From Candidatus Latescibacterota bacterium (GTDB lineage: Bacteria > Latescibacterota > UBA2968 > UBA8231), in assembly GCA_965203175.1 (NCBI GenBank), contig OZ241867.1:1792001-1856000 (forward strand): a DNA stretch of 64,000 nt, given 5' to 3'. Within the stretch, counting starts at the first letter, position 1; every line of letters starts with the position of its first letter. A model generated the notes under the pieces. It was not told where the DNA came from and searched no databases. It worked only from the letters and a program-made list of their open reading frames with translations. A program made the position numbers and the translations under genes. Shown here in pieces: positions 706-19,035 of this stretch.

Positions 706-735
706 AGTATGGCATTACGTCTGTAAAGGCAAGCT

Positions 736-1901: not shown

Positions 1902-1947
1902 ACGCACCGTAGTCGAGGATGGGATCAGCAGGAGACATCTCTACCTA
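1902..1947. repeat. 46-bp direct repeat, copy 2 (orphan copy of the kinase gene start, MSPADPILDYGA then stop)
   Basis: Direct comparison with 170-215. Confidence 0.95.
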
Positions 1948-1958
1948 TGGGAGGGAGT

Positions 1959-2516: not shown

Positions 2517-2543
2517 AGTGTCCGCCTGTACTTACGCCTTGGC

Positions 2544-2942: not shown

Positions 2943-3100
2943 GTCCTCCATCCTCCACGGTCGTAGGCTTGGTGTGTAAGCACATGACGGATGTATACTT
3001 TGCCCCGATTGAAGTGAATAGAGGCAATCAGGCGGTACTTGTTGCCGGCAATGTTGAACACGACGAATTCTCCGACTTTGTCGGCCGAAGGAAAAGTTGC
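2939..3100 (-). pseudogene. higB: 5'-truncated HigB toxin remnant
   Basis: Manual translation ATFPSADKVGEFVVFNIAGNKYRLIASIHFNRGKVYIRHVLTHQAYDRGGWRT*; N-terminal half replaced by the neighbouring gene. Confidence 0.85.
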
Positions 3101-3101
3101 G

Positions 3102-4247: not shown

Positions 4248-4315
4248 TTCTCTCCTTTGTCCCTAAGCCGGGGGCACGGACGTGTTAAATAAAGTTTGCC
4301 CAAAATGTCGGCAGT

Positions 4316-5065
4316 TCACGGTGCCTCTTTGCGCGCAAGAGCAACTAGCCGCTTTGAGCTAGGCCCATACGCACTGCCTTCCAAGTCCCCATATAGTTGC
4401 GTATTACTAAATCCAACTTGCAAGAGACGGTCCTTCAGTTCTTGGCCAGAGTACAACGTGTGGTGAAACTTGAACGATTTTACCTGCTCATCCCGAATCA
4501 AGAGCCACTCGTTGTGAATCCTCGTCCAATCGTCGAAGATCTCGCGACGTTGAACGAGCAATGTCCCGTCGGGAAGAGTTTCGGAGGAGGTCGCGGCAAA
4601 TACCTTGGCCAACCACTCTTTACCCATCAGATCCATTACGAGGACTCCCCCAGGCTTGAGACTCTCGTAGATATTGCTGAGCACTAGCAGGTCTTCGTCC
4701 TTGTCATCGAAATAGCCGAAGGACGTAAACATGTTGAGCACCAAGTCGTACGACGCGGATCGCACAAAACGACGCATGTCCTCTTGCACAAACTCAACGT
4801 CTAATTTCCGCTCGCTTGCTCGCGCCCTAGCTTTTTGCAGTAGGAATGCGGTCGCATCAACGCCCGTTACGGAAAATCCTCGCTCCGCCAGGATCGTGGC
4901 ATGCCGGCCGGGGCCGCAACACAGATCGAGGATATGTGTCCCGCTGAACTCCACCAGCGAAAGAATCTTGTCGACTTGATCTTCCGCAGATTCAAATCGC
5001 TCTTCCGAGAACATATAGGGATACATTTCCGTCCAGAAGTCTTCGTTTTCAAACCATTCGGACAT
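4316..5065 (-). CDS. Class I SAM-dependent methyltransferase
   Basis: ILDLCCGPGRH motif I; FTSFGYF; LKPGG. Confidence 0.9.
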   Translation of the reverse strand: MSEWFENEDFWTEMYPYMFSEERFESAEDQVDKILSLVEFSGTHILDLCCGPGRHATILAERGFSVTGVDATAFLLQKARARASERKLDVEFVQEDMRRFVRSASYDLVLNMFTSFGYFDDKDEDLLVLSNIYESLKPGGVLVMDLMGKEWLAKVFAATSSETLPDGTLLVQRREIFDDWTRIHNEWLLIRDEQVKSFKFHHTLYSGQELKDRLLQVGFSNTQLYGDLEGSAYGPSSKRLVALARKEAP

Positions 5066-5113
5066 AGAATTCCGGCCTCACTCGAAACCTCATCTGAAGA
5101 TGGGTGTTCAGGA

Positions 5114-5431
5114 TCAATGGAGGGCAGTCGGATAGGTTCCGTCCAGAGCCCGCTGCCGGTCGCGACGCACCCTGGCCAGATAATCGCGCATCGGCTCGAT
5201 ATCAAACTCCGCGATTAATTCATCGGTGCTCTTATCCGGCAAGTGTGAGCGCAGCGTCAACAGACATTCGTCACCCAGATGCTCCGCCGTTGCAGCACCA
5301 GGACCGTACCGCTCAAACAAGGACCGCACGCGCTGGATGTTGCCGTCGTGATGCACCACCCGCATATCCAAATCAAGCCCGGCAGTGGTCAGCGGTGCCA
5401 TGCCGGTCGCATCGCTGGTCTGGCGCGGCAC
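5114..5431 (-). CDS. Hypothetical protein, probably a C-terminal fragment
   Basis: 105-aa ORF co-oriented with the array; no recognisable motif. Confidence 0.3.
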   Translation of the reverse strand: MPRQTSDATGMAPLTTAGLDLDMRVVHHDGNIQRVRSLFERYGPGAATAEHLGDECLLTLRSHLPDKSTDELIAEFDIEPMRDYLARVRRDRQRALDGTYPTALH

Positions 5432-5516
5432 ACTGCAAATGGGCCGGCCGGCCGGTCAGGAGCATCGCCCGCAACCGGGCTGTAGCTAACCAGTGCAACA
5501 GTCGCGGTACGATTCA

Positions 5517-5542
5517 TTTATTCTTCGCCCTGCCAATAGTCG
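5517..5542. repeat. 26-bp exact direct repeat (copy at 11859-11884, near the 3' end of the P-loop kinase gene)
   Basis: tttattcttcgccctgccaatagtcg at both positions. Confidence 0.9.
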
Positions 5543-5621
5543 TCGGTTCCGCCTTCTGAAACGCGAGTCCACCTTGTAATTTAGCCTCGATCTCGTGGAA
5601 GCTGATCTTGTTCATATGTCT

Positions 5622-6191
5622 CTACCCTTGCTGATCTTTCTTTTCAAATGGTAAGTACAAACTGCGCCGACACCCCAGGGCCTCCAGCCCCTTCTCATAG
5701 ATCTCCTCGCACAGAGCGACTTTTCCGTCCATGTACGACTGGCGGTCATTGTCGTGCTCTTCAGCGAGTTGCCATTTCAGGGTACTGAGCCTACGAACAT
5801 ATTCGGGACTTAGTCTGAGGAAATCCCTGAAGACAAGATGCCGCTTCAAGGCTTCACCATACTTGTCACAAACGTACGTATGGTGGGCGGGCAAAGATTC
5901 CTTCAGGCCGCTATCGGACAGATCAAAGGCGTCTCTGCCGGGAATACCCTTGTCACCTTCATGGAAATATCCGATCTCTGCAAGCCGATCCTTCGTGCTC
6001 TCAAAATCCTGTGGCTCAATGACAATGTCAACGTCAATGATTGGCTTGGCGGTCATTCCGGCGACAGAGGTGCTACCGACATGCTCGATGCTGCAATACC
6101 TTCCGGACAAAACAGAATCAAAACGGTGTCGCAACGCTTCGAACCACGAGGGCCAAGCCGGATCATAGTGCTTTACCAAGGTAACGGACAT
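5622..6191 (-). CDS. GrpB family protein
   Basis: IEHVGSTSVAGMTAKPIIDVD, HLVFRDFLR, YMDGK. Confidence 0.92.
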   Translation of the reverse strand: MSVTLVKHYDPAWPSWFEALRHRFDSVLSGRYCSIEHVGSTSVAGMTAKPIIDVDIVIEPQDFESTKDRLAEIGYFHEGDKGIPGRDAFDLSDSGLKESLPAHHTYVCDKYGEALKRHLVFRDFLRLSPEYVRRLSTLKWQLAEEHDNDRQSYMDGKVALCEEIYEKGLEALGCRRSLYLPFEKKDQQG

Positions 6192-6301
6192 GATTCAATT
6201 GACCGCGTTGCGTCTAGTGCCCGACCGCGAAGTGGTTGCGAAATGCGCGCCAGCACCCCAAAACAGCAAGATTCAGGATGTTTCGAGGCATGGTTGTCTC
6301 C

Positions 6302-7018
6302 TCAATTCCTTCCACCGAAGCATGCTTTATAGATGAAATGTCGGTCGGGCACGTCGCGCCTTTCAAACTGTTGGAATAGGGCGCTATCATCGTACGGAAC
6401 GCGACGCATTTTCAATTCGTGGCTCCTGTTCTCGCACTCTAGGATGGCAAATCGCGCTATGGGTTCTGAATGGCAGCCCAAGGAACCGGGATTTACGTAT
6501 CTGGCCGTCCCCACTAAATCTGAAGGTGAATGAATGTGGCCATAGAATACGAGATCGGAGTTTATATCTGCGAAGACTTTATCCAAATCGACGGGACGAG
6601 GGTTATGGACGATGGGCCTGAAGTCAACCTGCGACTCTGTGAGGCCGTAGTGAAGAAACGATATTCGCACACCTTCATACACATCTTGAATCAGGTAAGG
6701 CCATTCTCTCACTGTATCGCGCAGGGACGGATCAAGACAGGAATGTACCCACTGGTGATGTTTCAACTCGCCGTCGCTCATCCACGGGGGTTGTGGCTCT
6801 GGAAGCCCGGTCGAAAACCAGGCGTCATGATTGCCGCAAATCAGATTCATGCCAGGCGTGCTCAGCAGCAGTTCCAAGCATTCTGCTGGAAATGGGCCGA
6901 TGCCTATGGCATCGCCTGTGTGAAAAATCGCGTCAGCACCCTCTTGCCGAATTGCTCTCAAGGCAACCTGAAGTGCAGGCAAATTGCCGTGGACATCTGT
7001 CAGGACCGCTATCTTCAT
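6302..7018 (-). CDS. Metallophosphoesterase family protein
   Basis: DVHGN, GD, GNHD, HG, GHIH, NPGSLG motifs. Confidence 0.92.
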   Translation of the reverse strand: MKIAVLTDVHGNLPALQVALRAIRQEGADAIFHTGDAIGIGPFPAECLELLLSTPGMNLICGNHDAWFSTGLPEPQPPWMSDGELKHHQWVHSCLDPSLRDTVREWPYLIQDVYEGVRISFLHYGLTESQVDFRPIVHNPRPVDLDKVFADINSDLVFYGHIHSPSDLVGTARYVNPGSLGCHSEPIARFAILECENRSHELKMRRVPYDDSALFQQFERRDVPDRHFIYKACFGGRN

Positions 7019-7033
7019 GTAAATTGTGCCAAT

Positions 7034-7456
7034 CTAATGTACTGGAGCCGCAGCCTTACGAGCCCAGGTGATATTGGCTAATGCGAATGACTCAACCTCA
7101 CGGCAGACAAAAGCAACCTCCCCCGGATGATCAGCCCTGCGGCTGATGTACTGGCGAACTGGGGCTAATAACTGCAAAAGAGCCTCTGTCCCGGGAAGGT
7201 TGGCGAAGGCCGACAGGACGTGCTGCTTGTCCAAAATGTATTCTTCAGTTCGGTCCCAAACAACAACTCGCAGCCAGTATAGGATTGCGTTGACCCGCGC
7301 GTCGTCAACGTCAATTGGGGCCGGATATGTTCGCTCCCACGCTCCGAGAAGATCTGGCACAAGGGCAACCAAGGATCGCTTCATAGCCTCCGGTGACGGT
7401 TCTGGAATAGCCGACAAATCGAGCTCAGTAATGACCGGTGTTGGAGAAGTATTCAT
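7034..7456 (-). CDS. Hypothetical protein
   Basis: 140-aa ORF filling the space between two clear genes, same strand. Confidence 0.55.
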   Translation of the reverse strand: MNTSPTPVITELDLSAIPEPSPEAMKRSLVALVPDLLGAWERTYPAPIDVDDARVNAILYWLRVVVWDRTEEYILDKQHVLSAFANLPGTEALLQLLAPVRQYISRRADHPGEVAFVCREVESFALANITWARKAAAPVH

Positions 7457-7476
7457 TTGGGAACTGATAGCGATTA

Positions 7477-8052
7477 TCAGGTTTTAGAACTGCCCAACAT
7501 GAAGGTTATTTCCCGATGCCAGCGCATGTTATCGTCGGGAACTATGAACTCTAATCTATCGCAAATAAACGACCCTTTGGGTGCCGTGTCTTGAAGTTGG
7601 TCGCAAAGCTTGAGACTCTCTGGTATCGAGATAAACTCTGCGATTGTCATATGAGGTGGTATGTGCCTCCTCTTGTACACCTTGCCACCAAATGCGCGGG
7701 ATTTATGGAGGGCCTCCTGCAACGCGCGTATTGGCTCCTCAGGATGTATTGAGTATGAGACACCTGGATGCTTGCTGGAAGCGTGGAGTGTACGGAAATG
7801 GAGCTCAAATGGCTGAAAGTCCTGCAATATGGCTCGGATCTCAGTTTCGAGGTCTGGCGTCATCTCCAGGCTAAGTGGGTCCGATACGGAGATGTGAGTA
7901 CCGCACGTAGCATGAGATTTTGGATCGTACTGCTTTCGCAATGGATCTATTAGATCGCTCACCTCTTTCGGAGGCATGATGAGGATCAATCCGAGTCGAT
8001 AATCAAGCTGCCAATCCTCCCAACTATCTGTATTCTGTGCATACCTAATCAT
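7477..8052 (-). CDS. 2'-5' RNA ligase family (2H phosphoesterase)
   Basis: Two HxS/T motifs (THIS, PHMT) and LRKQYDP. Confidence 0.85.
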   Translation of the reverse strand: MIRYAQNTDSWEDWQLDYRLGLILIMPPKEVSDLIDPLRKQYDPKSHATCGTHISVSDPLSLEMTPDLETEIRAILQDFQPFELHFRTLHASSKHPGVSYSIHPEEPIRALQEALHKSRAFGGKVYKRRHIPPHMTIAEFISIPESLKLCDQLQDTAPKGSFICDRLEFIVPDDNMRWHREITFMLGSSKT

Positions 8053-8058
8053 TGTTAA

Positions 8059-8292
8059 TTACTCTTTCAATAGGCCAGCAGCGATGAGAGCGCGATGGTG
8101 CAGGGGTAGAAAAACGTCCAGCGCCAACTCCTCAAGAACTCCTTCAGGTTGAACCAGTTTGCGCGCCAGCGTCTCGTGTTCGGATGCCCACTTATTGAGC
8201 TCGACTTTCGCTAGACAGATGGAGCGCACGTATGCGCACAGCGAGGTTATAGGATGTAAACGCGGGGGATATGTGCTGCCTAGTATATCCAT
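8059..8292 (-). CDS. Hypothetical protein or chimeric gene remnant
   Basis: 77-aa ORF co-oriented with the array; no motif. Confidence 0.3.
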   Translation of the reverse strand: MDILGSTYPPRLHPITSLCAYVRSICLAKVELNKWASEHETLARKLVQPEGVLEELALDVFLPLHHRALIAAGLLKE

Positions 8293-8334
8293 CCTTTGGA
8301 GGATGAAGAATGTCCTTCAGAAATATGAGGTGCT

Positions 8335-8550
8335 TCACGCCTCAATCGGGGTCAAGCGAAATACCCGAGACATCCGAGCCGCCTGCTCCAAGTCGCCCTC
8401 CCTTAGAGCCTCACGAACATCATCCAGCTTTTCAGCGTCCCTAACTGAAAGGTAAGGCGGCCATCCGGCGTCCCCATCGATCAACTCCACCTCCACTTCC
8501 GCAGCATATTTCCCTGCGCGCACTAGTTTCGTAGTCACTCTGCTCGTCAT
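8335..8550 (-). CDS. Small antitoxin-like protein partnered with a DUF4258 toxin
   Basis: KLVRAGKYAAEVEVELI...WPPYLSVRDAEKLDDVREAL; ATGA overlap with the toxin remnant. Confidence 0.7.
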   Translation of the reverse strand: MTSRVTTKLVRAGKYAAEVEVELIDGDAGWPPYLSVRDAEKLDDVREALREGDLEQAARMSRVFRLTPIEA

Positions 8551-8625
8551 GTTCGCCTCCTAGTGAAACCCTCGTCCCAATCCTGTCTGTTGGGTCGATA
8601 GGCCGTCACTACGACGGCGGGTGGA
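8547..8625 (-). pseudogene. DUF4258-type toxin C-terminal remnant
   Basis: Manual translation PPAVVVTAYRPNRQDWDEGFTRRRT*. Confidence 0.7.
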
Positions 8626-8699
8626 ATGTTATCGGTTGCTAAGAAATCACACGGCTTCAAGCGGCCGATAAGTACAGATATGCAGCTAAGGGCTTCCCT

Positions 8700-8942
8700 T
8701 TACGGTAGGTAATTTCCAGATAGTGTTCTCGCATAATTAGCTTCTTCTGCTTCTACGAGTTCCTCCGCGTACTCAAGAGCGGCCCGTACATCCGCGTCGA
8801 TAATACCATATTCCTCACAGACTTCTTCTGGGGTTACCCCTCCTGCAAGACTCCCAATAATTCGGTGCACTGGCACTCGGGTCCCCCGAATCACCGGCTT
8901 GCCATGACGGATCGAGGGATCGATTATGATTCGTTCATTCAT
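8700..8942 (-). CDS. DUF433 domain antitoxin
   Basis: IDPSIRHGKPVIRGTRVPV...EEY...DVRAALEYA. Confidence 0.9.
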   Translation of the reverse strand: MNERIIIDPSIRHGKPVIRGTRVPVHRIIGSLAGGVTPEEVCEEYGIIDADVRAALEYAEELVEAEEANYARTLSGNYLP

Positions 8943-8985
8943 ACTGACTCAACTTGACCAATTTTCGCTATGATCGATCGCAAAT
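8929..8985. repeat. 57-bp direct repeat (copy at 18618-18674) spanning the MazG-like stop / DUF433 start junction
   Basis: 53/57 identical by eye. Confidence 0.93.
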
Positions 8986-9143
8986 GAAACTCAGGATAGT
9001 AGTTATGTGTTTTCCCGCTTTCGGCCGACGTTCGCCGATTTGCGAACCCCGAAAGGGTTGCCAAAGGCCAAGCTGCCGTAGCTAGGGGCGCAATGTTATC
9101 GATAGTGGAATCCTACTGAGCGGCCCCCAAAGCTTGGATCACT

Positions 9144-10007
9144 TTAGATGTGAGTTGGCCGGGTCTCGGCGGGCTGATAGTTTAGGGCTTGGGCAAATTC
9201 ATCGGGTGTTTTATATCCGAGGCTACTATGGGGTCGTTGCTGGTTGTACAGGCACCGATAGTCCTCCACGACGACGCGGGCTTCGGCGATCGAAAAGAAG
9301 ATTTCTGGCGTAAGACACTCGGCTCGAAAACGGCTATGAAAACTTTCGATGAGGCCATTTTGCCACGGGCTACCCGGCTCGATATACAGCGTCTGGATGT
9401 CGGCGGCAGCGCACCAATCCTGAATGAGTCGGGCGATAAATTCCGAGCCATTATCCGAGCGCATAAACGCCGGTGCGCCCCACGCTTCGACCAGCGCTTG
9501 AAGCGTATCCAACACGTGGTCACTGGGGATCGAACGCGCCGGGTGAATGACCAAACACTGCCGGGTATATTCATCTACGACCGTCAGCATCTTCACCGGC
9601 CGACCGTCGGTGGTTCGATCCAAAATGAAATCCCATGACCAGACATGGCCGGGATAGGCCGCCTGCACCGGAGTGCGCCGCGCCGACCGGGGGCACCGTT
9701 TCCGGCGCTCCACCGGTGGTACGCCTAACCCGGCTTGCCGCCGCACCCGCTGGACGCGTTTGCGATTGACCGTCCAACCCTCGCGGCATAAGAGCTGATG
9801 AATAAGCCGATAGCCCCAGCGCGGATGCTGTTTCGACAAGGTGATAATGCGCTGCTCCAGCCGCTGCCGCCGGTCGGTGGGGCCTTGCGGCCGATGATAA
9901 TAACTCGAGGGCGCCAGCCCGACCACAAGGCAGGCCCGCCGCGTCGAGCACATCCCCTGTTCGGCGACATAGTGGACGGCTCGTTTTTTATGCGACGGGC
10001 TTACCAT
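9144..10007 (-). CDS. IS3 transposase OrfB (DDE)
   Basis: WSWDF, VVDEYTR, RSDNGSEF, PWQNGLIESFH, YNQQRPHSSLGY. Confidence 0.93.
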   Translation of the reverse strand: MVSPSHKKRAVHYVAEQGMCSTRRACLVVGLAPSSYYHRPQGPTDRRQRLEQRIITLSKQHPRWGYRLIHQLLCREGWTVNRKRVQRVRRQAGLGVPPVERRKRCPRSARRTPVQAAYPGHVWSWDFILDRTTDGRPVKMLTVVDEYTRQCLVIHPARSIPSDHVLDTLQALVEAWGAPAFMRSDNGSEFIARLIQDWCAAADIQTLYIEPGSPWQNGLIESFHSRFRAECLTPEIFFSIAEARVVVEDYRCLYNQQRPHSSLGYKTPDEFAQALNYQPAETRPTHI

Positions 10008-10276
10008 TTTTTTGCGTTGATCGCTTGCAACACCCGATTATCCAGCATCGCTTCGGCCAGCATCTTTTTCAACTCGGCGTTTTCTTTTTCTAACGCTTTC
10101 AAGCGCTTGGCATCGGCTACATCCATACCGCCGTATTGCTTTTTCCAGCGATAGAAGGTGCCTTCGGCGATGTTATGCACGCGACAGAGTTCGGCCACCG
10201 TTTGGCCGCCATCCGCCTGCCGCAAAATGCGGATAATTTGCTCGACAGTACGAGATTTGCTCCCTTTGCGCTTCAT
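10001..10276 (-). CDS. IS3 transposase OrfA (HTH)
   Basis: EQIIRIL...TFYRWKKQYGGM...LEKENAELKKMLAE. Confidence 0.93.
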   Translation of the reverse strand: MKRKGSKSRTVEQIIRILRQADGGQTVAELCRVHNIAEGTFYRWKKQYGGMDVADAKRLKALEKENAELKKMLAEAMLDNRVLQAINAKKW

Positions 10277-10356
10277 GAGTATGCTCCTCGTTAAGAAACA
10301 AGAAAATACTCACATCCAAACCTGTCCAGGTTTAAGGGGGCAGGCCACTACGGCAC

Positions 10357-10584
10357 TTAGCCTGAAGATTCAGCTATTTCTTTTATTACGCGTTCGCGTA
10401 AGCCCAATACAGTAAGGCCGACCACTTCATTATTGACCTCATCATAGCGGACGACAACCCCTTCACCTATATCAACACCCACAGCCGGTTTGGGCGTCCC
10501 GACGGAAAGATAAAGGACATCAGCTTCTTCATCGTATTCCCAATCAATCGTATCTGGTTTGTCCAGTATTTTTAGGACTTCCAT
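10357..10584 (-). CDS. DUF2283 domain protein (putative antitoxin)
   Basis: YDEEADVLYLS...GVVVRYD...VVGLT. Confidence 0.85.
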   Translation of the reverse strand: MEVLKILDKPDTIDWEYDEEADVLYLSVGTPKPAVGVDIGEGVVVRYDEVNNEVVGLTVLGLRERVIKEIAESSG

Positions 10585-10883
10585 AAGACATTTCTCCTAT
10601 TCGATAGACGACTGGCCCAATAAGCGGTTAAAACAAAACCATCGTCCGGTTGCACTTCTCGATAAACTGCGATTAGATATTTACTCGTCAATGGCGTTTT
10701 CGCATAGAAGCGAATGGCCATGAGTGTGCCATAATCGCCTTCCTGGATCTGAGCGGGTTGGGATATGGTCTCCAAGATGCTTTCTTGGGAAGTCGCCATT
10801 TCGGGGTGTCTCCGCACAATATGCTGCCATCGCTCCTCTGTTAGGCGAATAGGGACACTATTGTGCGATCGGACGATTTTCAA
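10572..10883 (-). CDS. Putative RelE-fold/DUF4258-like toxin partner of DUF2283
   Basis: IRLTEERWQHIVRRHPEM...GFVLTAY; overlaps the DUF2283 gene. Confidence 0.65.
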   Translation of the reverse strand: MKIVRSHNSVPIRLTEERWQHIVRRHPEMATSQESILETISQPAQIQEGDYGTLMAIRFYAKTPLTSKYLIAVYREVQPDDGFVLTAYWASRLSNRRNVLWKS

Positions 10884-10971
10884 CCTTCGATATCTCCATG
10901 ATTTTCAAATTCACCGTAAGCGTCCCCTAACTTGAAACAGTTTTGTTCCATTGTCGATAACTGCTTATACT

Positions 10972-11071
10972 CGAACAATTGGTCCGGGTAATCGCCTTTA
11001 TCTGATCCGAAGGTACGTATCCGTGTAAACAGCCGCAACCTATAGTAGTATTCTACGTAACTCCTTGTAAT
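10972..11071. repeat. About 100-bp non-coding direct repeat (copy at 17698-17806), possibly a degenerate attC-like site
   Basis: cgaacaattg..cgggtaatc..ttatctga.ccgaaggtacgtatccgtgtaaacag.cgcaa...gtattctacgtaac.ccttg.aat shared; copy 2 has a short insertion. Confidence 0.9.
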
Positions 11072-11108
11072 AAATTGAGATAACACGATTCTTCTGAGGT
11101 CTGACGCG

Positions 11109-11264
11109 CCTAGCAGCGCAAATCGCTGTGTTGCCTGAACACTAACGAGACTGATCCAGAATTTTGGGAAGCTCACTTAGCGAGTGGATCGTAAAATCGG
11201 GATCGCCCGTTTCGTCATTGGGCGTGCGATCGGCGAATTTCCCATTTTGAAACCAAACCGTTGT
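11109..11264. repeat. 156-bp direct repeat (copy at 15690-15845): orphan 3' end of the HAD hydrolase gene plus downstream DNA
   Basis: About 146/156 identical by eye. Confidence 0.95.
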
Positions 11265-11279
11265 GGCTTCTTCATCTCT

Positions 11280-11834
11280 TCAGAGGCTTTTCTCCGCCCT
11301 TTGTGCCTTCAAGGCGGCAACCAAGCGGTAGGATTCAGCCAACTGCTTTCCGTCATCTTCTTTCGTTTCAAGCCTCCGACACGCCTCTTCCAACGAGAGA
11401 GCCGCGACTTCGGAGACCTGTTCAGCCCCCTTGGGATTCGTGGGTTTCCCCGAGATTTCAACCTCCCCATAAGCGAGTAGCCGATAGAATTCTGGCCAGG
11501 GCAAATGAGGTCGATATGGTTTGTCAGCGAGTGAATGACAGTGCCAGGCACCCACCAAATGGAAGGTTTTCAAGACTGCCCCTGCCTCTTCCATCAGCTC
11601 TCTTTCGATTGTATCCAAGTATCCTTCCCCCGGCTCCAGAGTTCCACCGACGATGCACCATCCATTTTCGTGTTTGACGATGACCCATTTGTCATTCACA
11701 CACGGAACAAAATTCACGTTACTGATCAACTCATCCGGTGGCGTGACATCCAGCTCCAAGACGGCGCGAGTTGGCCCCCAAGGGAGAAGCTTCTCCTCAA
11801 AGAGTTCAGGGAACAACGACTTGTCTATGTTCAC
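11280..11834 (-). CDS. NUDIX hydrolase
   Basis: GGTLEPGEGYLDTIERELMEEAG Nudix box. Confidence 0.88.
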   Translation of the reverse strand: MNIDKSLFPELFEEKLLPWGPTRAVLELDVTPPDELISNVNFVPCVNDKWVIVKHENGWCIVGGTLEPGEGYLDTIERELMEEAGAVLKTFHLVGAWHCHSLADKPYRPHLPWPEFYRLLAYGEVEISGKPTNPKGAEQVSEVAALSLEEACRRLETKEDDGKQLAESYRLVAALKAQRAEKSL

Positions 11835-12433
11835 AGTTTTGTCCGGTCTGTAAGCCCGTTTATTCTTCGCCCTGCCAATAGTCGGATTTGCTGCACAATG
11901 TCATCTATGCTGGGGGAGTATTGTCCCTCTGTTGAGACGTGAACTGTAGGCACGTTGAAATCCGGAGCTGTATAGTCGTCAGGAGGCGACAGCTCACCTG
12001 TTTCCCTGTAGATTTCAACGCGCTTATCGCCGTGGTAGAACTCCCGATTTGGATCATCCAGACCCCGCTGGAGATGGCGTTGAGCCGCCACCATCCCGTC
12101 AACAGAGCAGACGACCATGAAAGGAGTGCACAATTCAAGGATCTTGGGCATCCTCGGTTCCCAAACCCGGTGCTGAAAGGCCGCCTCAATAACGATAGAG
12201 ATCTTACCGGCGAGGTACTGATTGACTATCTCGAAGAAAAAATTGGAGACTACGCCATTGGTGTCCGGCGGAAGCTGATCGTGCTTGACGCCATGGGTAT
12301 TGACATAGCCTTCCTTGATCTCGTCGCGACTGATAACCGGCATCCACAATTGCTCGGCGAGCCTCTTGGCTAAACTCGTCTTCCCTGATCCCGGCCGGCC
12401 TGTGACGATAATGCATTTAGGTTTACTGCTCAT
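11831..12433 (-). CDS. AAA_33-like P-loop nucleotide kinase
   Basis: IIVTGRPGSGKT, ISRDEIKE, IVIEAAF; start placed at MSSKPK. Confidence 0.85.
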   Translation of the reverse strand: MSSKPKCIIVTGRPGSGKTSLAKRLAEQLWMPVISRDEIKEGYVNTHGVKHDQLPPDTNGVVSNFFFEIVNQYLAGKISIVIEAAFQHRVWEPRMPKILELCTPFMVVCSVDGMVAAQRHLQRGLDDPNREFYHGDKRVEIYRETGELSPPDDYTAPDFNVPTVHVSTEGQYSPSIDDIVQQIRLLAGRRINGLTDRTKL

Positions 12434-12495
12434 TAGGCCAAGCTCCCGAAGTGAGCGCTGCGTGAATTGCTGTGTTATCCGCCGATGAATGTTCC

Positions 12496-12969
12496 TCAAT
12501 CAATAAATGCATCGGATGAGGAATTAGGAAACGCAAGATTGCGTAGGTCGATTCCTCCCATGACAACCGATTTGAGATTTATGAGGGCAAAGGTCCACGG
12601 CGCAATGTCTAAGAGCTGGGCATCCTCTCCTTCTGACGTCTTGGGATAGGTTGCCTCTAGAGAAAAAACGACAGGATTTTCACTTTCAATAGAGTACCGG
12701 ACCTTCGCTCCTTGTACTACAGCATCCCAATCCATTTCCACGTAGTGACCTTTTTTGATCTCGAGAATTCTATGTTCCTCATCAGGCTCACTGCCCCACC
12801 AGCCGCACTGTATGGTCTTTCCTTTTTCAAAGGTGCCTGTACAGGAGGTGGGAAACCAAGTCACGTATCCTTCGCAAGTCCCAATTAAGTCCCATACGGC
12901 TTCTTTGGGGCATGAAAGTACCATTTTAAGCCTAATTGAATTGTCTACTAGGTACGGATTCTCCACCAA
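12496..12969 (-). CDS. SRPBCC/AHSA1 domain protein
   Basis: PKEAVWDLI...WFP...WTFALINLKSV...GIDLR. Confidence 0.75.
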   Translation of the reverse strand: MVENPYLVDNSIRLKMVLSCPKEAVWDLIGTCEGYVTWFPTSCTGTFEKGKTIQCGWWGSEPDEEHRILEIKKGHYVEMDWDAVVQGAKVRYSIESENPVVFSLEATYPKTSEGEDAQLLDIAPWTFALINLKSVVMGGIDLRNLAFPNSSSDAFID

Positions 12970-13117
12970 TCAATTCTCCTATAACTTAATGGGCATTCCG
13001 CCGGCTGCGAACCGTATCAAGGACCGTCGCATCTTTGCCTCCTTTCCATATCCTAAAAGATGTGGATCGATTCATATCCAAGTTTGACTCTGGCCGGCTC
13101 GGCGTAATACAGATTGC

Positions 13118-13735
13118 TCAATCGAAATCAGTTGGTAAATCTGGCGACCTCAAAAACTCGAAAAAACGGTCGATCTGAGCAGAAGTTACTCTACCTGTGG
13201 ACAGTTCAGGGATGGCATCTTGCTTGAAGAAATCGACACCATCCGTTTCATAGCTTGTAGATGGGCTTCCACCTAGGATTTCGCAGTGAAAGAAAAGCTT
13301 ATAGACGTGATACGGGTGAGGAGGGTGAGGGTGTTTGTTTCGGTCATAGCAGGCTAGTAGCTTCAGCGCTTTAGCCTGGTAGCCCGACTCCTCGAAGACT
13401 TCGCGTGCCACGGACTCGCTCGGCGACTCGTTGACATCGACCCATCCCCCAGGCAACGTCCACTTACCATCTGCTCGCTCTCTGACCAGCAGAATAGCAT
13501 CTTCGTTGAAAACGACACCCCGCACATCGACTTTGGGCGTTGCGTGGCCATGCTCACCAGCAAACAGATCCCGAATTCTTGGCAGATCTGAGTCCGTGTA
13601 ATTTTGCAGAATCTCCAACGCAAGTTCGCGTAGCTCCTCGAATCGCTCGATATCAAAGGGATCCTTGGAATACGTTAGACCATTCTGACCTATCGCCTGA
13701 AGTTTTCTTGCCCAGGTGAGCCAATTAGGTTCCAT
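13118..13735 (-). CDS. NUDIX hydrolase with N-terminal domain (YjhB-like ADP-ribose pyrophosphatase)
   Basis: WARKLQAIGQNGLTYSKDPFDIERF, TPKVDVRG, GGWVDVNESPSESVAREVFEESG. Confidence 0.92.
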   Translation of the reverse strand: MEPNWLTWARKLQAIGQNGLTYSKDPFDIERFEELRELALEILQNYTDSDLPRIRDLFAGEHGHATPKVDVRGVVFNEDAILLVRERADGKWTLPGGWVDVNESPSESVAREVFEESGYQAKALKLLACYDRNKHPHPPHPYHVYKLFFHCEILGGSPSTSYETDGVDFFKQDAIPELSTGRVTSAQIDRFFEFLRSPDLPTDFD

Positions 13736-13829
13736 AGTCGGCTAAGTACATTCCTTTATTTCCGGTTCGAATAACGTTTTCGCCGTGCCCGAGCCGCGCA
13801 GCGGTTGGGCGGATCCACTCGCGTCCACA

Positions 13830-14966
13830 CTAGTTAGCCGCGCTGATGCACATTTGAGCGATCGCTTGCGCTATCGGCTCGGTTCTGCCTATGTCCACAG
13901 CCTCAGGCCACCTATCTGCTTGGTGGCGCAACAAGGCATTGGGACTAAGCACTGAGACATAGCGAGCGCGGTGTTTGAAGATTGACGAGGCTTCGCCTGT
14001 TGGCGGATCACCTACGGGACGCTTGCGATCCAATGAAGCCCCAGCGTCCCGAAGCTCGTTCTCCGCCATCGTCGCCAAGTCAGTGTCCGAAGCCTGTAGC
14101 CAGAGACATGCACCGAATGCAGCACCGATACTCGCACCAATGTGAATCCAGGTTGAGGCCGCAATCTCCGAGTCATCCAAGGATTTCATGGCATGCTTGA
14201 GTCCGATGTGGCCCAGCTCATGCCCGGTCGTGGCAATGAACCGAACGTCCCTACGGCAGCGCGCTGACTGAAGCGCTCCGAGTGAATTGAGCCACACTGC
14301 TAGTCCGGTCCCGCGTTCTGAAGCGCACTGCCACCAACCGCTGCGGGCGGTTAGCACGACGAGAGGGGCTAGGCTTGCGTCTGAACCACGTATCCTGGCC
14401 TCGACGTTGAACGCTTGGGTCGGCGTCCTGCTGGCACTGGCCACGAAGTGTGTCTCGGCTCCGATAAGCGCTTCAATGCGCACGACAGCTTCCGGTGGCA
14501 GATGGAGTACGGGTGGCCCAAACGGACTGTCGAACGCAGGGGCATTCGGTAGTGCCATGCCTTCCTCGGCGTGCTTGCTTTGCCGCGCCACAGATATGAT
14601 AGCCACATGCTCCCCAGATTGCCGCGCCTCCATAAGAGCAGATGCAGAGTGCTCAGGGAGACGAACGCCAATTGGATGGTGTGAGCCGAGCCGCCCCATC
14701 GTCCCTGAAACTCCCTCGCTGGACGTCTGGCCACCATCGTACTGAATGGATCCTTCAAACACCTCGCCGTCGATCGCTAGCTGTCCTACCTCCTGATCAA
14801 CTCGAGCCATGTCGAAGCCGATCAGATTCGGTTCGGCACCGAAGCTCTCTATCGAACTGGCCAACCAATGAGCAGAAGCCACATCGACATCAGATCCACA
14901 GCGGTGCTCTCCTTGTGCATCGTGGTCACGAATGAACGCGGCGGTTTGATCTTGGGACGAACTCAA
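13830..14966 (-). CDS. Hypothetical protein with M28-peptidase-like fold
   Basis: HRCGS..D, SGWWQCASERGTG, TGHELGH, HIGA motifs. Confidence 0.6.
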   Translation of the reverse strand: MSSSQDQTAAFIRDHDAQGEHRCGSDVDVASAHWLASSIESFGAEPNLIGFDMARVDQEVGQLAIDGEVFEGSIQYDGGQTSSEGVSGTMGRLGSHHPIGVRLPEHSASALMEARQSGEHVAIISVARQSKHAEEGMALPNAPAFDSPFGPPVLHLPPEAVVRIEALIGAETHFVASASRTPTQAFNVEARIRGSDASLAPLVVLTARSGWWQCASERGTGLAVWLNSLGALQSARCRRDVRFIATTGHELGHIGLKHAMKSLDDSEIAASTWIHIGASIGAAFGACLWLQASDTDLATMAENELRDAGASLDRKRPVGDPPTGEASSIFKHRARYVSVLSPNALLRHQADRWPEAVDIGRTEPIAQAIAQMCISAAN

Positions 14967-15110
14967 CTATCTCTCCATTGTGCGAAATACCCCGACGTGC
15001 ATCTGAACTCGAAGACGGAATAGTTCTAAAACCGCTCGAACAGCCGCAGGGCTCTCTGAGTATTGGCCACAAATGAGCGTTACAGAGTCGTACATTTTCA
15101 TGACGGGTTC

Positions 15111-15680
15111 CTAATCATATTTGCCCAGTCCTTTCTTCCACTCTTCCACCAATAAACCAGTAATATGCTCGTGCTTTATCTCTCCATCAGCCATGCAGCG
15201 GAACGCTTTCCGTCTCATTCCTTCCACTTTGTAACCGAACTTCTCTTGCATCTTCAACGAAGACGTATTTCCTTCGAAGAAGCCGTTGTCGAGTCTCCTC
15301 AATTTGAGCTCCTCAAACGCGAATCGGATCTTCTCACCAAATGCCTCTGCTCCGTATCCGTGCCCTTGGTAGTTTGGGTTTAGCCATATACCTCCTCCGG
15401 CAGTCCCGTGTATTCTGCTGATCCTATCCAAGGCCACACCCCCAATCACTTTCTGCTCGGATTTAAGCTCGATAGCAAAATCATAGGAGTTTCTATCTTC
15501 GCCCTTTGAAACGTTATCAATACAGCGATTTATCCACTCTTCGGCATGTCGCCGGGTGTATGGATGCGGAACAAAGGCGAGCCATTTTGCGACCTCTATA
15601 TTGTTGAGGCCTTCAACAATATCGTCGATGTCGGCCTTGATCCAGTCTCTCAGTATCAAACGTTTGGTCTCTAATCTCAT
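15111..15680 (-). CDS. GNAT (RimJ/RimL-like) N-acetyltransferase
   Basis: LETKRLILR, YQGHGYGAEA, NTSSLKMQEKFGYKVEG. Confidence 0.9.
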   Translation of the reverse strand: MRLETKRLILRDWIKADIDDIVEGLNNIEVAKWLAFVPHPYTRRHAEEWINRCIDNVSKGEDRNSYDFAIELKSEQKVIGGVALDRISRIHGTAGGGIWLNPNYQGHGYGAEAFGEKIRFAFEELKLRRLDNGFFEGNTSSLKMQEKFGYKVEGMRRKAFRCMADGEIKHEHITGLLVEEWKKGLGKYD

Positions 15681-15731
15681 TTGACTCTACCTAGCAGCGC
15701 AAATCGCTGTGTTGCCTGAACACTAACGAGA

Positions 15732-16187
15732 CTAATCCAGAATTTTGGGCAACTCACTTAGCGAGTGAATCGTAAAATCGGGATCGCCCGTTTCGTCGTT
15801 GGGCACAAGATCGGCGAATTTCCCATTTTGCAACCAAACCGTTGTCGCTCCTGCTGCATTGCCCCACGCAATCCCTCGTATTATGTAGTCATCCACAACA
15901 ACCACCTCGTTGGCTTTAAGACCGACTTTTCTCAACAGGGCCTCATATTCCTTTGATTTGGCGTCGCCGCTTGCGGTGAAGACGATTTCCTCAAAGTGAT
16001 CGAGAATACCCTTCTCTCGCAATGCCTCGATGCGGTCCTCTTCCTCATCCGCAGGAGAGACAGATACGATACTGAGTCGGTACTTCTCAGCTAGCGTTCT
16101 TACGACGGGGATTGCGTCGGGGAAGAAATCGTCGGTTTCTCGATCGTATAGGGTGCGGCCATAGTCAAAGATTATCATCTTAGCCAC
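15732..16187 (-). CDS. HAD-family hydrolase
   Basis: IIFDYGRTLYD motif I, VVVDD, PDFTIHSLSEL; GTG start after GGAG; the longer track ORF is a fusion with upstream remnants. Confidence 0.85.
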   Translation of the reverse strand: MAKMIIFDYGRTLYDRETDDFFPDAIPVVRTLAEKYRLSIVSVSPADEEEDRIEALREKGILDHFEEIVFTASGDAKSKEYEALLRKVGLKANEVVVVDDYIIRGIAWGNAAGATTVWLQNGKFADLVPNDETGDPDFTIHSLSELPKILD

Positions 16188-16224
16188 GGCAAATATCTCC
16201 TTTGGTCTCTGAGCGAGCGGGAAT

Positions 16225-16337
16225 AAAACCAAATTGGTCTCTGACCGATAGGATTCCAGATACGTACCTCGGACACCAGAACCGAGATCTCCACGGCGAT
16301 ATTCTGGACGCAGATCGTCTGGATCAGCCTTCTTCAT
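16225..16337 (-). pseudogene. N-terminal remnant of a BrnA/CopG-like antitoxin
   Basis: MKKADPDDLRPEYRRGDLGSGVRGTYLESYRSETNLVL, then breaks off. Confidence 0.6.
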
Positions 16338-16350
16338 AGATCTCAGTCGT

Positions 16351-16566
16351 TCACTTAGCCCGTTTCCATTTTTGTACGGACCCATCTCGTCTGTGGATGA
16401 CGACATCCCCGCCCTCTGAGATTTTGATTGCGATTTTTTCGGCAGCGGACTTGGTACTGTAGATTTTTGAAGCTTTGGAATTCCCTTCCTTTTTCACTGC
16501 CCAACCATCTTTTCTTGATATAACATGCACTCTCTTGCAACTGGTCGCTTGTGACTTTCTTGCCAT
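16351..16566 (-). CDS. DUF2188 domain protein
   Basis: HVISRKDGWAVKKEG...VVIHRRDGSVQ. Confidence 0.85.
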   Translation of the reverse strand: MARKSQATSCKRVHVISRKDGWAVKKEGNSKASKIYSTKSAAEKIAIKISEGGDVVIHRRDGSVQKWKRAK

Positions 16567-16602
16567 GGTAGGTCTTTCTCACCCTCGTAGGTATTTATCT
16601 AA

Positions 16603-17666
16603 CTGACGTTACGCAGCTTTTGTCCCAACTTCCCATTCCTGTATCCTTTCCGCTACACTCCAGCGCCTCATATCCCTCTCCTTCCCTCTGAACCGCCGCC
16701 GTGGCACGATTCTTGCCTGTTGCGGGTACCATCCCCACCCGCAACCCAAGGCATGTCTCATGGCTGAATTCGACACCATCGCCAAACATCTCATCCACAC
16801 CTACCCCCATGACTTCGCCCGCTTCGCCCTCCACCAAGACGACGTCGAGGTACTCGACGTGATCGACACCGAACAACCCACCGTCGAAGCCCACCGCACC
16901 GACAGCCTCCTCCGCGTGCGCGTCGGCGGCGAGGAGGCTCTGGTCCATCACGAGTTTCAAACCACCGATAGTAGTCCGCCCATGCCGCAGCGCATGGCTG
17001 GCTATATCGGGCGTGCCATCGAGCAGCACGGCCTACCCACCTACTCCACCGTCATCTATCTGCGTCCCGACGCGGGCCGGAATGATCCGGGGCACTATCT
17101 CCAAGGGCGGCACGGCTTCCACGTGTTGGTGCAATACCAAGTGATTCGGCTGAGTGAACTAGACGGCCAACGTATGCTCGACGCGGAGCATTCGGGTTTG
17201 ATTCCGTTTGCGCCGTTGATGCAGCAGCCGGCGGGTGTGGATGCCGAGGCATGGCTGCGCCAGTGCGTCCACCGGGCGCAAGCCGTACCGATGGACGAGA
17301 CCCTCAAGGCGAATTACTTGGCCAATCTTGCGATCTTGAGTGGTTTGGTGTATAGATTAGAAACGGTTATGACCATCATATCGGAGGCAACCATGTACGA
17401 ATCGTCGGTAGTGCAGTATTTCACGGAAAAGGGCATCAAGCAAGGCATCGAGCAAGGAGGCCGAGAACGCGCCATTGAAGATTTGCTCGACGTGCTGGAA
17501 ATCCGCTTTGGGCTGGCCGCGTCGGATCCGTTGGCCGCTCGCATTGGGGCCATTGACGATCTGCAACGCCTCAAGCAGTTGCACAGAGCAGCCATACAAG
17601 TCCCAAGCCTCGAAGCCTTTACAGACCTATTAGATGCCGACGAGTAAGGTCGCCGCGTAACGTCAG
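16603..17666 (+). mobile_element. 1064-bp element carrying an rpn-like gene, with terminal inverted repeats and an 8-bp target duplication
   Basis: Ends CTGACGTTACGCAGC / (rc) CTGACGTTACGCGGC, 14/15 match; TTATCTAA at 16595-16602 and 17667-17674; gene is on the strand opposite to the array. Confidence 0.75.
16760..17647 (+). CDS. Rpn/YhgA-like PD-(D/E)XK nuclease family protein
   Basis: FDTIAKHL, RTDSLL, HHEFQT, MPQRMAGY, GLIPFAPLM, GIKQGIEQG repeats, LEIRFG. Confidence 0.85.
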   Translation: MAEFDTIAKHLIHTYPHDFARFALHQDDVEVLDVIDTEQPTVEAHRTDSLLRVRVGGEEALVHHEFQTTDSSPPMPQRMAGYIGRAIEQHGLPTYSTVIYLRPDAGRNDPGHYLQGRHGFHVLVQYQVIRLSELDGQRMLDAEHSGLIPFAPLMQQPAGVDAEAWLRQCVHRAQAVPMDETLKANYLANLAILSGLVYRLETVMTIISEATMYESSVVQYFTEKGIKQGIEQGGRERAIEDLLDVLEIRFGLAASDPLAARIGAIDDLQRLKQLHRAAIQVPSLEAFTDLLDADE

Positions 17667-17807
17667 TTATCTAAATCTTCTGCACACTGTTTGTACCCGA
17701 ACAATTGATTCGGGTAATCCCCTTATCTGACCCGAAGGTACGTATCCGTGTAAACAGTCGCAATCAATACCGCGAGGTTGGGGTATTCTACGTAACCCCT
17801 TGCAATC

Positions 17808-18599
17808 TCAACAGTTTCCGTCCTCCAGATCAGAGGAGGGCTGCACTCGATACCAATACCGGTACGACTCGCTGAAACCATACTTGCGTTGTAGAGTTAG
17901 GGCTGGCTCGTTGTTCGCCATCACCTGCAGGTATGCCAGACGCGCCCCCTGCTCAAATCCCCAGTTGAGGCGGGCCTCAAGGAGCCCACGGCCGAAGCCC
18001 TGACCCCGATGCTCGGGATCCACCATCAAATCAAAGAGCCCCATGATTGAGCCCGAAACAACGGCGCGGGCGCAGCCTACGGATTGGCCATCAGTCCGGG
18101 CGACAACATAGGCCGAAGGAGTGGGGATCGCGTTGAGCAAACTGCGAAATATCTCAGCGTGCTGATTGCGACCGGACAGACGTATCCAAGTTTCGAGCCA
18201 CTCATCTGTTGCCCCTTCGTATAGCGATATGGCAGGGGAACTAGCGGGACGGGCCTCAAGCCGCATGGTTTGAACCAGTGTATCGGCGTCTTTCGAGTAC
18301 TGAAGCTGCGCCAAGGTCTCGTCCAAATCCTCAGGCTGACAGGCAGGGAAAATCTTGAAAAGACAAGGTAGCGATGCCCGCGCGTACGCCGCTTCACAAT
18401 GAACCAGCTTCTCTTGGAGCGGGGATGTGGATTCATACAGCGGGACTACACAGTTGGCACGGCGACTGTATCCCTCAGCCATTCGAACGATCCAGCCGTC
18501 GTAGAACTCTGTTTGCAGCGCGGGTAGCCCGTTCAGTGCCGCCTCTTCCAGCCTTGCTACAAGCTCTGGACTGTTCGTTGAATCAAGTGCTGTCGTCAT
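17808..18599 (-). CDS. GNAT family N-acetyltransferase
   Basis: DGWIVRMAEGYSRRANCV, HRGQGFG, AYLQVMANN; start placed at MTTALD. Confidence 0.9.
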   Translation of the reverse strand: MTTALDSTNSPELVARLEEAALNGLPALQTEFYDGWIVRMAEGYSRRANCVVPLYESTSPLQEKLVHCEAAYARASLPCLFKIFPACQPEDLDETLAQLQYSKDADTLVQTMRLEARPASSPAISLYEGATDEWLETWIRLSGRNQHAEIFRSLLNAIPTPSAYVVARTDGQSVGCARAVVSGSIMGLFDLMVDPEHRGQGFGRGLLEARLNWGFEQGARLAYLQVMANNEPALTLQRKYGFSESYRYWYRVQPSSDLEDGNC

Positions 18600-18627
18600 A
18601 GGTTTCGGTATGCCTATATTCGTTCGT

Positions 18628-19035
18628 TCATCCTGACTCAACTGGACCAATTTTCGCTATGATCGAGCGCAAATCTGGATCTGAAAACAGATCTGACTTC
18701 AATACTTTGCCGTCCTCCCTGAATATCGGCTTGCCCTGCTCATCTAGCTTGCTCATGTTGCTGCGGTGGACTTCAGCAAATAGCTCTTCGGCAATGTCCT
18801 GCAGACCATGCGTGATGAACGTACCCAGCAATACGTAAAGCATGTCGGTAAGGGCGTCTGCGATCTCGACGATGTCGTGGTTATGTACGGCCGCTCGATA
18901 TTCGTCTAGCTCCTCCAAAAACATCTGGATACGCCCTTGGCTTATTTCCGCCGGCACCGTTGCCGTAGGCGTGCGCTCCATGTATGCTTGGAACACTTCG
19001 TGAAAACATCTGACGCTATCAAGCTGGTCTTTCAC
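18628..19035 (-). CDS. MazG-like nucleoside triphosphate pyrophosphohydrolase
   Basis: EELDEY, EIADALTDMLYVLLGT, EVHRSNMSKL, REDGKVLK; GTG start after AGGAG. Confidence 0.9.
   Translation of the reverse strand: MKDQLDSVRCFHEVFQAYMERTPTATVPAEISQGRIQMFLEELDEYRAAVHNHDIVEIADALTDMLYVLLGTFITHGLQDIAEELFAEVHRSNMSKLDEQGKPIFREDGKVLKSDLFSDPDLRSIIAKIGPVESG

Follow-up and report, generated by a model that had tools for sequence, protein, structure and literature searches.

Probable stepwise addition of DNA from related species to a decayed, integrase-less integron-like array in a Candidatus Latescibacterota genome

How can a row of genes gain DNA between two copies of a gene end and yet keep every target gene whole? 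The question is raised by a stretch of 64,000 nucleotides from a Candidatus Latescibacterota bacterium (hereafter the window), for which an earlier note had described three nested long direct-repeat pairs. Self-BLAST of the window recovered the pairs with that nesting: pair M (8929-8985/18618-18674, 57 bp, 93%, E 5e-17) encloses pair A (10960-11071/17686-17806, 122 columns, 79.5%, 10-bp gap, E 4e-24), which encloses pair H (11109-11271/15690-15852, 163 bp, 93%, E 1e-63); the 156 bp previously given for H is the core of the full repeat. The described stubs are also present, namely MNERI* behind the MazG-like gene, the HAD 3' end, and a MazG remnant of 14 codons plus stop ahead of DUF433, and the mismatches between copies do include synonymous ones. 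Both window copies of A are real, and the repeat is a dispersed one, with 10 profile matches in the host genome and up to four near-full copies per array in relatives. The features are as follows.

18628..19002, minus strand: MazG-like gene (Pfam PRA-PH), near the array head in 13 of 13 relatives compared
18618..18674, minus strand: repeat M, first copy; MazG 3' end and DUF433 start stub, abutting the GNAT gene
17808..18600, minus strand: GNAT acetyltransferase gene; second copy at C1:2.005 Mb
17686..17806, minus strand: repeat A, first copy; putative 5'-truncated integron leader/attI, degenerate core 17687-17681
16603..17666, plus strand: element with an Rpn-family gene (16760-17647) within short terminal inverted repeats, flanked by 8-bp direct repeats
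16342..16345, minus strand: private junction between the DUF2188 end and what is left of an antitoxin gene
15732..16187, minus strand: HAD-family hydrolase gene, intact copy
15690..15852, minus strand: repeat H, first copy; HAD 3' end and left half of its attC site
11280..15680, minus strand: cargo enclosed by pair H; GNAT, putative peptidase, NUDIX, SRPBCC/AHSA1, AAA_33 kinase-like, NUDIX
13770..13813, minus strand: remnant of an attC site, its 3' half, the core still intact, ahead of a NUDIX cassette (E 4.5e-9)
11109..11271, minus strand: repeat H, second copy; HAD stub and half attC
10955..11115, minus strand: repeat A, second copy; putative near-complete integron leader/attI, crossover point between 10961 and 10960
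9030..10960, minus strand: toxin-antitoxin-like cassette; unnamed 103-aa gene and DUF2283, attC 9030-9100, split by IS3
9117..10347, minus strand: IS3-family element with 4-bp target repeat; five more identical copies in the genome
8929..8985, minus strand: repeat M, second copy; MazG stub coupled to DUF433
8700..8942, minus strand: DUF433 gene, intact copy
170..8700, minus strand: distal part of the array; attC remnants 6216-6254, 4259-4289 and 1845-1910

At about 1-19 kb (minus strand) lies a decayed, integron-like array of cassettes, which retains attC remnants and lacks a cognate integrase. It is the distal portion of a chromosomal array of this kind, with the integrase gene deleted and the attC sites eroding. 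Profiles built from 32 attC sites of G048 and G056 match five intergenic minus-strand places in 1-14 kb of the window (E 2e-8 to 0.13) and nothing below E 3 in 20-64 kb, and cmsearch gave three matches in the window with the attC model (R1), which scores sequence alone because the attC alignment gave no pairs in RNAalifold. The window thus holds at least two attC sites in one orientation, with no integrase within 10 kb, as is required of a CALIN. The best site, 9030-9100, has unpaired ends in its predicted fold rather than the recombinogenic hairpin, and the remaining sites are half sites. The distal array also contains a 46-bp gene-start stub pair (170-215/1902-1947). A search of the host genome (93% complete, one contig) found no cognate integrase, beside the leader or elsewhere, the sole IntI-like trace being a 64-residue remnant at C1:1,293,790; among 31 genomes of the genus, a single one was found to have the cognate type, and it is not one with this array.

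Pair A appears to be two copies of the integron leader/attI, and the array would therefore possess a second copy of its entry site. This assignment follows from a homologue between the integrase and the first cassette of a family relative and from the behaviour of the toxin-antitoxin cassette. The G048 spacer between integrase and first cassette aligns with repeat A (BLAST, E 1.7e-8), and that of G056 does so weakly (E 0.002); judged by sequence, repeat A has the upstream position relative to the integrase start and the G|TT crossover point of an attI site, and A copies stop at the G|TT core, beyond which more than 10 different sequences follow. In G048, 18 of 26 cassettes obey the rule that the first bases are complementary to the cassette's own inverse core (shuffled control: mean 2.7, maximum 9 in 10,000), and the opening bases of the toxin-antitoxin cassette, the sole testable one in the window, are the exact complement of its inverse core. 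In G048 and G056, the integrases that adjoin the homologous leader are missing some 35-40 residues of the G026 IntI and are devoid of the IntI-specific additional domain. A promoter scan of the leader found no sigma-70 consensus in 10880-11300, and an Rfam scan of 1-22 kb gave a single chance match, so that A corresponds to none of the known RNAs. In view of this integron relic and its leader, the earlier term attC-independent lacks support when applied to the array.

Comparison with relatives indicates that the array keeps gaining DNA from homologous, differently ordered arrays of related species. Within each pair, the copies diverge as much as copies of different species: the copy-to-copy differences against the different-species means are 4 versus 3.3 for M, 10 versus 10.3 for the coding part of H and 25 versus 26.8 for A. 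Both states are found in other genomes at 2 of 4 differing columns in M (3 of 4 with the G001 copy), 6 of 10 in H and 15 of 25 in A, and each copy has its nearest neighbour in another genome and not in its partner, with the exception of 42 non-coding H bases that are identical in both copies and also in G006. The earlier suggestion that the copies are alleles is therefore borne out, in the sense of different lineages. In seven hand-picked frames there are 13 synonymous and 10 non-synonymous differences, an excess too small (p = 0.057) to reject a model in which one copy is a neutral stub and the other is constrained. Donor and recipient could not be assigned from gene trees, as those for MazG, HAD and a flank gene lacked resolution.

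Of the junctions, just three are private to the host genome (8985/8986, 16342-16345 and 11271/11272), and most others are native in relatives. For M, the deletion junction of the first copy to GNAT is common to 6 of 13 relatives, the 3' side of the second copy is native in G006 and G003, and its 5' junction (8985/8986) did not turn up in 30 other genomes of the genus. For the first A copy, the junction with GNAT is native in G021 and that with DUF2188 in G011 and G002. The first H copy has a junction to the next GNAT gene that is native in G006; the second has a 5' junction to NUDIX that is private to the host genome and covered by a read contig, and a 3' junction to A that is native in five relatives. 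These left copies of H and A form a single contiguous block in the same five relatives, and the nesting of H in A is thus not independent evidence. For the NUDIX gene at the private H junction, a metagenome scan found no close relative (best 69%). Several junctions lie at TAGG, which resembles a worn core site. Empty-site alleles, as anticipated earlier, exist for M in G006 and G003, for A in G021, and for H in G021, G011 and G022. No two of the species compared have the same gene order; wherever a relative has both genes, MazG lies ahead of HAD, and the second copies run in the reverse order (H, A, M).

We consider the most probable history, at about 0.58, to be the addition of array segments from relatives in three successive steps, with one homologous crossover and one illegitimate join in each. 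A repeat pair would then be the overlap that remains if incoming DNA is inserted in addition to, rather than in place of, the resident sequence. The crossover would have occurred in a shared stretch, i.e. the MazG 3' end (M), the attI leader (A) or the HAD 3' end (H), and the illegitimate join at the far end of the segment, for which 16342..16345 is a candidate in the A event. The fragment may have been trimmed and recircularised, or a topologically equivalent homology-facilitated illegitimate recombination may have placed the join inside the anchor. The order was probably M, then A, then H, and nesting would result because each event lands in DNA delivered by the preceding one; the target gene would stay whole because the donor supplies a functional allele of that gene's end. 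The genome has comEC and dprA, which makes natural transformation a plausible route of entry. One private junction per event suffices, the remaining junctions being native in relatives, and the locus has what insertion-duplication leaves behind: one-copy empty sites, two allelic bounding copies and one new joint per pair. The claim that DNA was added with long direct repeats and intact target genes accordingly stands, and so does Campbell-type integration, one of the routes named earlier. It should be noted that the M overlap (57 bp, 93%) is short for RecA, so that either a longer anchor or subsequent trimming may apply to M. No excised circle or intermediate state was seen in assembled contigs of public runs, which counts against stepwise addition; no excision joints between repeat copies were among the joints listed in read contigs, and no Ku, as an aid to circularisation, was found in the genome.

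The same anatomy recurs elsewhere in the genome: outside the array at 35606/36965 (exact empty site in G001), at C1:1,685,930/1,693,458 (G003, G011, G012 and G022) and at C1:5,962,776/5,965,243 (G002). At two of these three loci the cargo is 98-99% identical across species, with flanks at 91-95%. Among 91 low-copy pairs genome-wide, 14 have the gene end first and the stub later and 4 the reverse, as counted from crude ORF calls in the host genome alone.

The main rival, which we regard as possible though clearly less probable, is a heteroallelic tandem duplication, in which unequal or non-collinear crossovers (between attI copies, for instance) would have brought in a long piece of a relative's array and doubled whole genes, after which deletions trimmed one copy to a stub and spared the start of the next gene. 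It is favoured, and stepwise addition is disfavoured, by G011, where two near-complete alleles with nearly full MazG and HAD copies stand in tandem, and by the stub junction at C1:1.685 Mb, which is also present in G010 and G021, both without a full upstream gene match. HAD and MazG stubs of varied length (about 16-197 bp) occur in G003, G010, G012, G021 and G023, deletions are pervasive in that the MazG-GNAT junction and the ATGA-coupled MazG-DUF433 both look derived from a form with a 43-bp spacer, and merodiploids arising from transformation are known (PMC3784515). The host itself has a second full MazG-GNAT-A block (C1:2,005,117-2,006,432, 94% identical) with a third M copy inside; the GNAT gene of that block lies opposite 17808..18600 across a split with 100/99 support in the gene tree. 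Nevertheless, a linear second allele predicts a parallel order (M, H, A again), whereas the reverse is observed, and a single private junction per pair is more economical than duplication plus deletions. An improbable alternative is that the repeats are by-products of the cognate integrase, which, acting in trans or while still present, would have recombined attI copies with attC and secondary sites and moved leader-carrying multi-cassette circles. The G|TT ends of the A copies, the cassette rule, the TAGG junctions and the use of secondary GWT sites by integrases (10.1101/2022.09.11.507474) would agree with this; yet it covers the A 3' ends alone, leaves unexplained both the ragged 5' junctions, private and within coding sequence, of M and H and the identical anatomy outside arrays, and needs an integrase type found in none of the genomes with this array.

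Stacking of strain variants from a mixed sponge sample by the assembler is very unlikely. The read sets do contain many relatives' alleles and rearranged joints, the contamination estimate is 6.5%, and the private M junction is absent among the contig pieces listed. Against this, unique pieces of run X1, which may be the source sample, match from 10467 to 15719 with 0-1 differences at an even depth of 19.5-22, and one X1 contig spans the private NUDIX/HAD-stub junction by 33 bases; several pieces also have exact matches in run X2, from a further sample in that study, and similar double alleles exist in several other genomes. The reading of the earlier note, transposition with long target-site duplications as in IS1634-like elements, is largely refuted and has hardly any probability left, although direct repeats do flank the inserts and the targets are intact. 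A genome search found neither an IS1634 transposase nor a resolvase, and the one reverse transcriptase lies 2.6 Mb away. Allelic copies that were probably never identical, together with mostly native junctions, argue strongly against target-site duplication, as the junction after each first copy predates the insert in other species. The inserts indeed have no common ends, as had been said, but the region does hold elements with terminal inverted repeats or target repeats of their own: the Rpn-family element, with an empty site in G011 and G002, is a passenger in the array, and the IS3 element a later one that interrupts the toxin-antitoxin cassette. Two proteins with 99% identity to the Rpn-family product are encoded on other contigs. 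Rpn-promoted addition was set aside, as additions stayed under 4% with or without RpnA (PMC5350276).

Stepwise addition would be a known mechanism in an unusual setting, and the novelty implied earlier lacks support, as single-crossover insertion-duplication, with a donor fragment that is trimmed and recircularised, has been documented in E. coli, where 56 of 60 clones had 109-950-bp duplications (PMC3240628; Amarir-Bouhram et al. 2011). There, too, foreign DNA came to lie behind a gene end, part of the homology was duplicated, and one illegitimate joint arose with no integrase; in contrast, the present case is natural, inter-species and nested three times, and has overlaps of 57-163 bp at 80-93%. 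Growth at a conserved anchor, mosaic alleles, and older genes and gene-end remnants pushed downstream recall homology-facilitated illegitimate recombination and the Vibrio T6SS immunity arrays that arose through sequential displacement (Kirchberger et al. 2017, PMC5361080). In those arrays the effector is displaced or lost, whereas here the target gene remains complete and the events take place in a relic of an integron. The co-oriented GNAT, NUDIX and toxin-antitoxin cassettes, several attC, absent nearby integrase, IS insertions and degenerate attC match a CALIN or decayed sedentary integron at a domestication stage (Cury et al. 2016, PMC4889954); in contrast to it, there are several internal attI-leader copies, the order differs among all species compared, and the relatives' cognate integrase lacks the IntI-specific insertion. 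Transformation merodiploids, in which donor/recipient repeats permit additive, non-conservative recombination (Johnston et al. 2013, PMC3784515), involve 100-900-kb duplications at IS copies, unlike the few kilobases at gene ends and attI leaders with differing alleles found here.

A more far-reaching and tentative proposal is that, in this genus, the attI leader of a non-canonical, insertion-less integrase system has multiplied in the array and, with gene ends, might act as a portable crossover site for the continued exchange and stacking of multi-cassette blocks between species, in a lineage that may add circularised fragments genome-wide with unusual efficiency via only 40-160 bp of imperfect homology. 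Gene-end repeats that flank cargo require no new mobile element, which calls for caution, and the locus and its counterparts offer natural, comparable cases of additive recombination between species. They also point to an integron-like system in which the integrase has no counterpart of the domain regarded as diagnostic of integron integrases. The case shows how a cassette array with no integrase can remain variable rather than become fixed, a point relevant to the roles of CALINs and to cassette domestication; if this reading is true, an integron may have a second life after the loss of its integrase.

Comparison of the window with itself bore out the nesting of three direct-repeat pairs proposed in the earlier note, with matches far above chance level, and the stub genes and synonymous mismatches between copies were present as stated there:

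8929-8985 and 18618-18674: pair M, MazG 3' end plus DUF433 start; 57 bp, 93% identity, E 5e-17
11109-11271 and 15690-15852: pair H, HAD 3' end plus half attC; 163 bp, 93% identity, E 1e-63
10960-11071 and 17686-17806: pair A; 122 columns, 79.5% identity, E 4e-24

The surrounding array (~1-19 kb, nearly all genes co-oriented, on the minus strand) contains GNAT, NUDIX, HAD and toxin-antitoxin-like pairs, which are typical cassette cargo, at a G+C content of ~0.51-0.53 versus 0.59 for the genome; it is a decayed integron-like array. Repeat A has matches in 23 of the 61 genomes searched. In G048, a genome of the same family but a different genus, its homologue is found exactly between a tyrosine-recombinase gene start and the leading cassette of a long row. 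Of the 26 cassettes in this row, 18 open with bases exactly complementary to the inverse core of the same cassette, which is the signature of integron cassettes; shuffling gave a mean of 2.7 and a maximum of 9. When 32 attC sites of G048 and a further genome, G056, were turned into profiles, these matched five intergenic minus-strand places in the array of the window, with no comparable match at 20-64 kb. Because of its position beside the integrase, the remnant of an integrase start codon at which the first A copy of the genus arrays starts, the G|TT core at which A copies terminate (more than 10 different sequences come next), and the window's toxin-antitoxin-like cassette, which runs from the core of the left A copy to the complementary inverse core, repeat A is a putative integron leader with attI.

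The integrases of G048 and G056 are without the IntI-specific insertion, which two publications (10.1101/2022.02.06.479319, PMC8352920) treat as defining for integron integrases; their gene has an internal stop in G048 and is apparently intact in G056. Of 31 genomes of the genus, a single one was found to have this type and no array-bearing genome did, and none of the four tyrosine recombinases of the source genome belongs to it. Long rows of canonical-looking attC sites adjoin the insertion-less recombinase in G048 (C1:2,022,000-2,062,300) and G056, cassette platforms that appear to be integron-like. The source genome itself has relic attC sites and partial leader copies at 1.43, 2.00, 3.55-3.57, 6.23-6.24, 0.71 and 0.74 Mb of its contig C1, apparently several relic arrays in one genome, and a 64-residue N-terminal remnant of a classical IntI-type integrase at C1:1,293,790-1,293,981, similar in G045 and G015. 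In a 46-bp pair at 170-215/1902-1947 of the window, a gene-start stub is fused to an attC remnant and the gene start recurs 1.7 kb downstream. In open-access text, no paper was found on attI leaders duplicated within arrays that lack an integrase, on short integrases of this kind or on integrons in sponge Latescibacterota.

The array also houses a copy of an Rpn-family element, which has an empty site in G011 and G002:

Window 16603-17666: Rpn-family element
C1:162633-163716, C1:852874-853925, C1:2274221-2275280 and C1:6475097-6476185: further Rpn-family copies in the source genome

The gene, with an ESM Atlas score of 0.97 and without a Pfam match, occurs in five diverged copies at unrelated AT-rich sites, each inside 12-14-bp terminal inverted repeats and with 7-8-bp flanking direct repeats that are clear in four. 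The same terminal repeats are also found on small non-coding elements, and the source genome yielded no DDE transposase enclosed by them; either a non-autonomous element carries the gene as a passenger, or an Rpn-like protein may be a true transposase. The literature search found no paper on an Rpn-family gene between terminal repeats; in a CAST preprint, Rpn genes are mentioned as having short inverted repeats nearby. Elsewhere in the window, a low-G+C island (19154-27455) with a DNA methyltransferase, two IS, a PIN-domain protein, a BrxD-like ATPase and a tRNA-guanine-transglycosylase-like gene is a candidate defence or DNA-modification system.

The same array is present in 13 relatives, with varying gene order, and comparison of junctions with these genomes shows that each repeat pair combines native junctions with one private join. 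At M, the MazG-stub-GNAT junction occurs in 6 of the 13, none of which has the 57-bp second copy within the stretches compared; two of the 13 have the ATGA-coupled MazG-DUF433 form, and a search of 30 other genus genomes did not turn up the junction preceding the MazG stub. At A, the empty site (GNAT-A-toxin-DUF2283) is in G021, the A-DUF2188 junction is native in G011 and G002 and the HAD-half attC-A junction in five relatives, and the join at 16342-16345 is the sole private one. At H, the HAD-GNAT junction is native in G006 and the NUDIX-HAD stub junction is private.

The copies are alleles rather than sisters, as the earlier note had suspected: copy-copy distances match between-genome means: 4 versus 3.3 for M (14 copies; the G001 copy is under the coverage filter), 10 versus 10.3 for the coding part of H (8 copies) and 25 versus 26.8 for A (17 copies). 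Other genomes show both states at 2/4 differing columns of M (3/4 with the G001 copy), 6/10 of H and 15/25 of A. The 42 non-coding bases identical between the H copies count against this reading. In seven hand-picked frames of six pairs, 13 synonymous and 10 non-synonymous differences reject neutrality (p = 7e-4) and do not reject one neutral stub plus one constrained gene (p = 0.057).

Target duplication, the earlier proposal, would need the copies to be identical and two junctions to be new, and the observations bear out neither; no IS1634 transposase and no resolvase was found. Whole-gene duplication with later deletion is the main rival, in keeping with two near-full tandem alleles in G011, stubs of many different lengths in relatives and a further MazG-GNAT-A block in this genome (C1:2.005 Mb). 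This block adjoins the array's true proximal flank, and rearrangements involving 15 copies of one IS part it from the window; the array's proximal part lies 190 kb from the window array on the opposite strand, and the near-identical IS copies exchanged flanks in a rearrangement chain (loci C1:2,005,117-2,007,596 and window 21465-22628). The reversed order of the second copies favours sequential insertion, although H and A are not independent. An assembly artefact would have to be reconciled with read run X1, which may be the source sample, where the unique pieces between 10467 and 15719 agree to within 0-1 differences at a depth of 19.5-22 and one contig reaches 33 bases beyond the private H junction, and with exact matches of run X2 to several pieces; the private M junction is not among the matches listed for read contigs. 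The whole window lies in a single 6.58-Mb contig, and sponge and marine metagenomes are among the runs containing this stretch.

The gene-end repeat anatomy is not peculiar to the array. Among 212 candidate repeat pairs genome-wide, 91 are low-copy, and 14 of these have the gene end first and the stub later, by crude ORF calls in this genome alone and without a control. One flanks a mandelate-racemase-like gene:

Window 35606-35673 and 36965-37032: 68-bp gene-end pair, outside the array

All three pairs compared with relatives have an exact empty site, this one in G001 (with a shorter stub in G011 and G002), that at C1:5.96 Mb in G002 and that at C1:1.685 Mb in G003, G011, G012 and G022. Empty-site alleles, which the earlier note had proposed to seek, exist both for array pairs and outside. 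G010 and G021 also have the stub junction at 1.685 Mb, compatible with either an old event or a deletion that trimmed the copy.

The simplest path to the observed structure is three successive additions, each by one crossover in a shared stretch and one illegitimate join: M would have received a MazG end-GNAT-A-TA block, A an A-DUF2188-HAD block and H a HAD end-GNAT-to-NUDIX block. Their order is inferred, a circle or anchor route may have been used, and the DNA may have entered by transformation; comEC and dprA are present in the genome, and Ku was not found there. PMC3240628 reports that 56 of 60 E. coli clones selected by a similar design had such duplications, 109-950 bp long in 14 sequenced clones and attributed to donor DNA trimmed and recircularised, and homology-facilitated illegitimate recombination is proposed for Vibrio immunity arrays in PMC5361080. 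The mechanism is already known; the structure is real, and known recombination explains it, though the setting is unusual.
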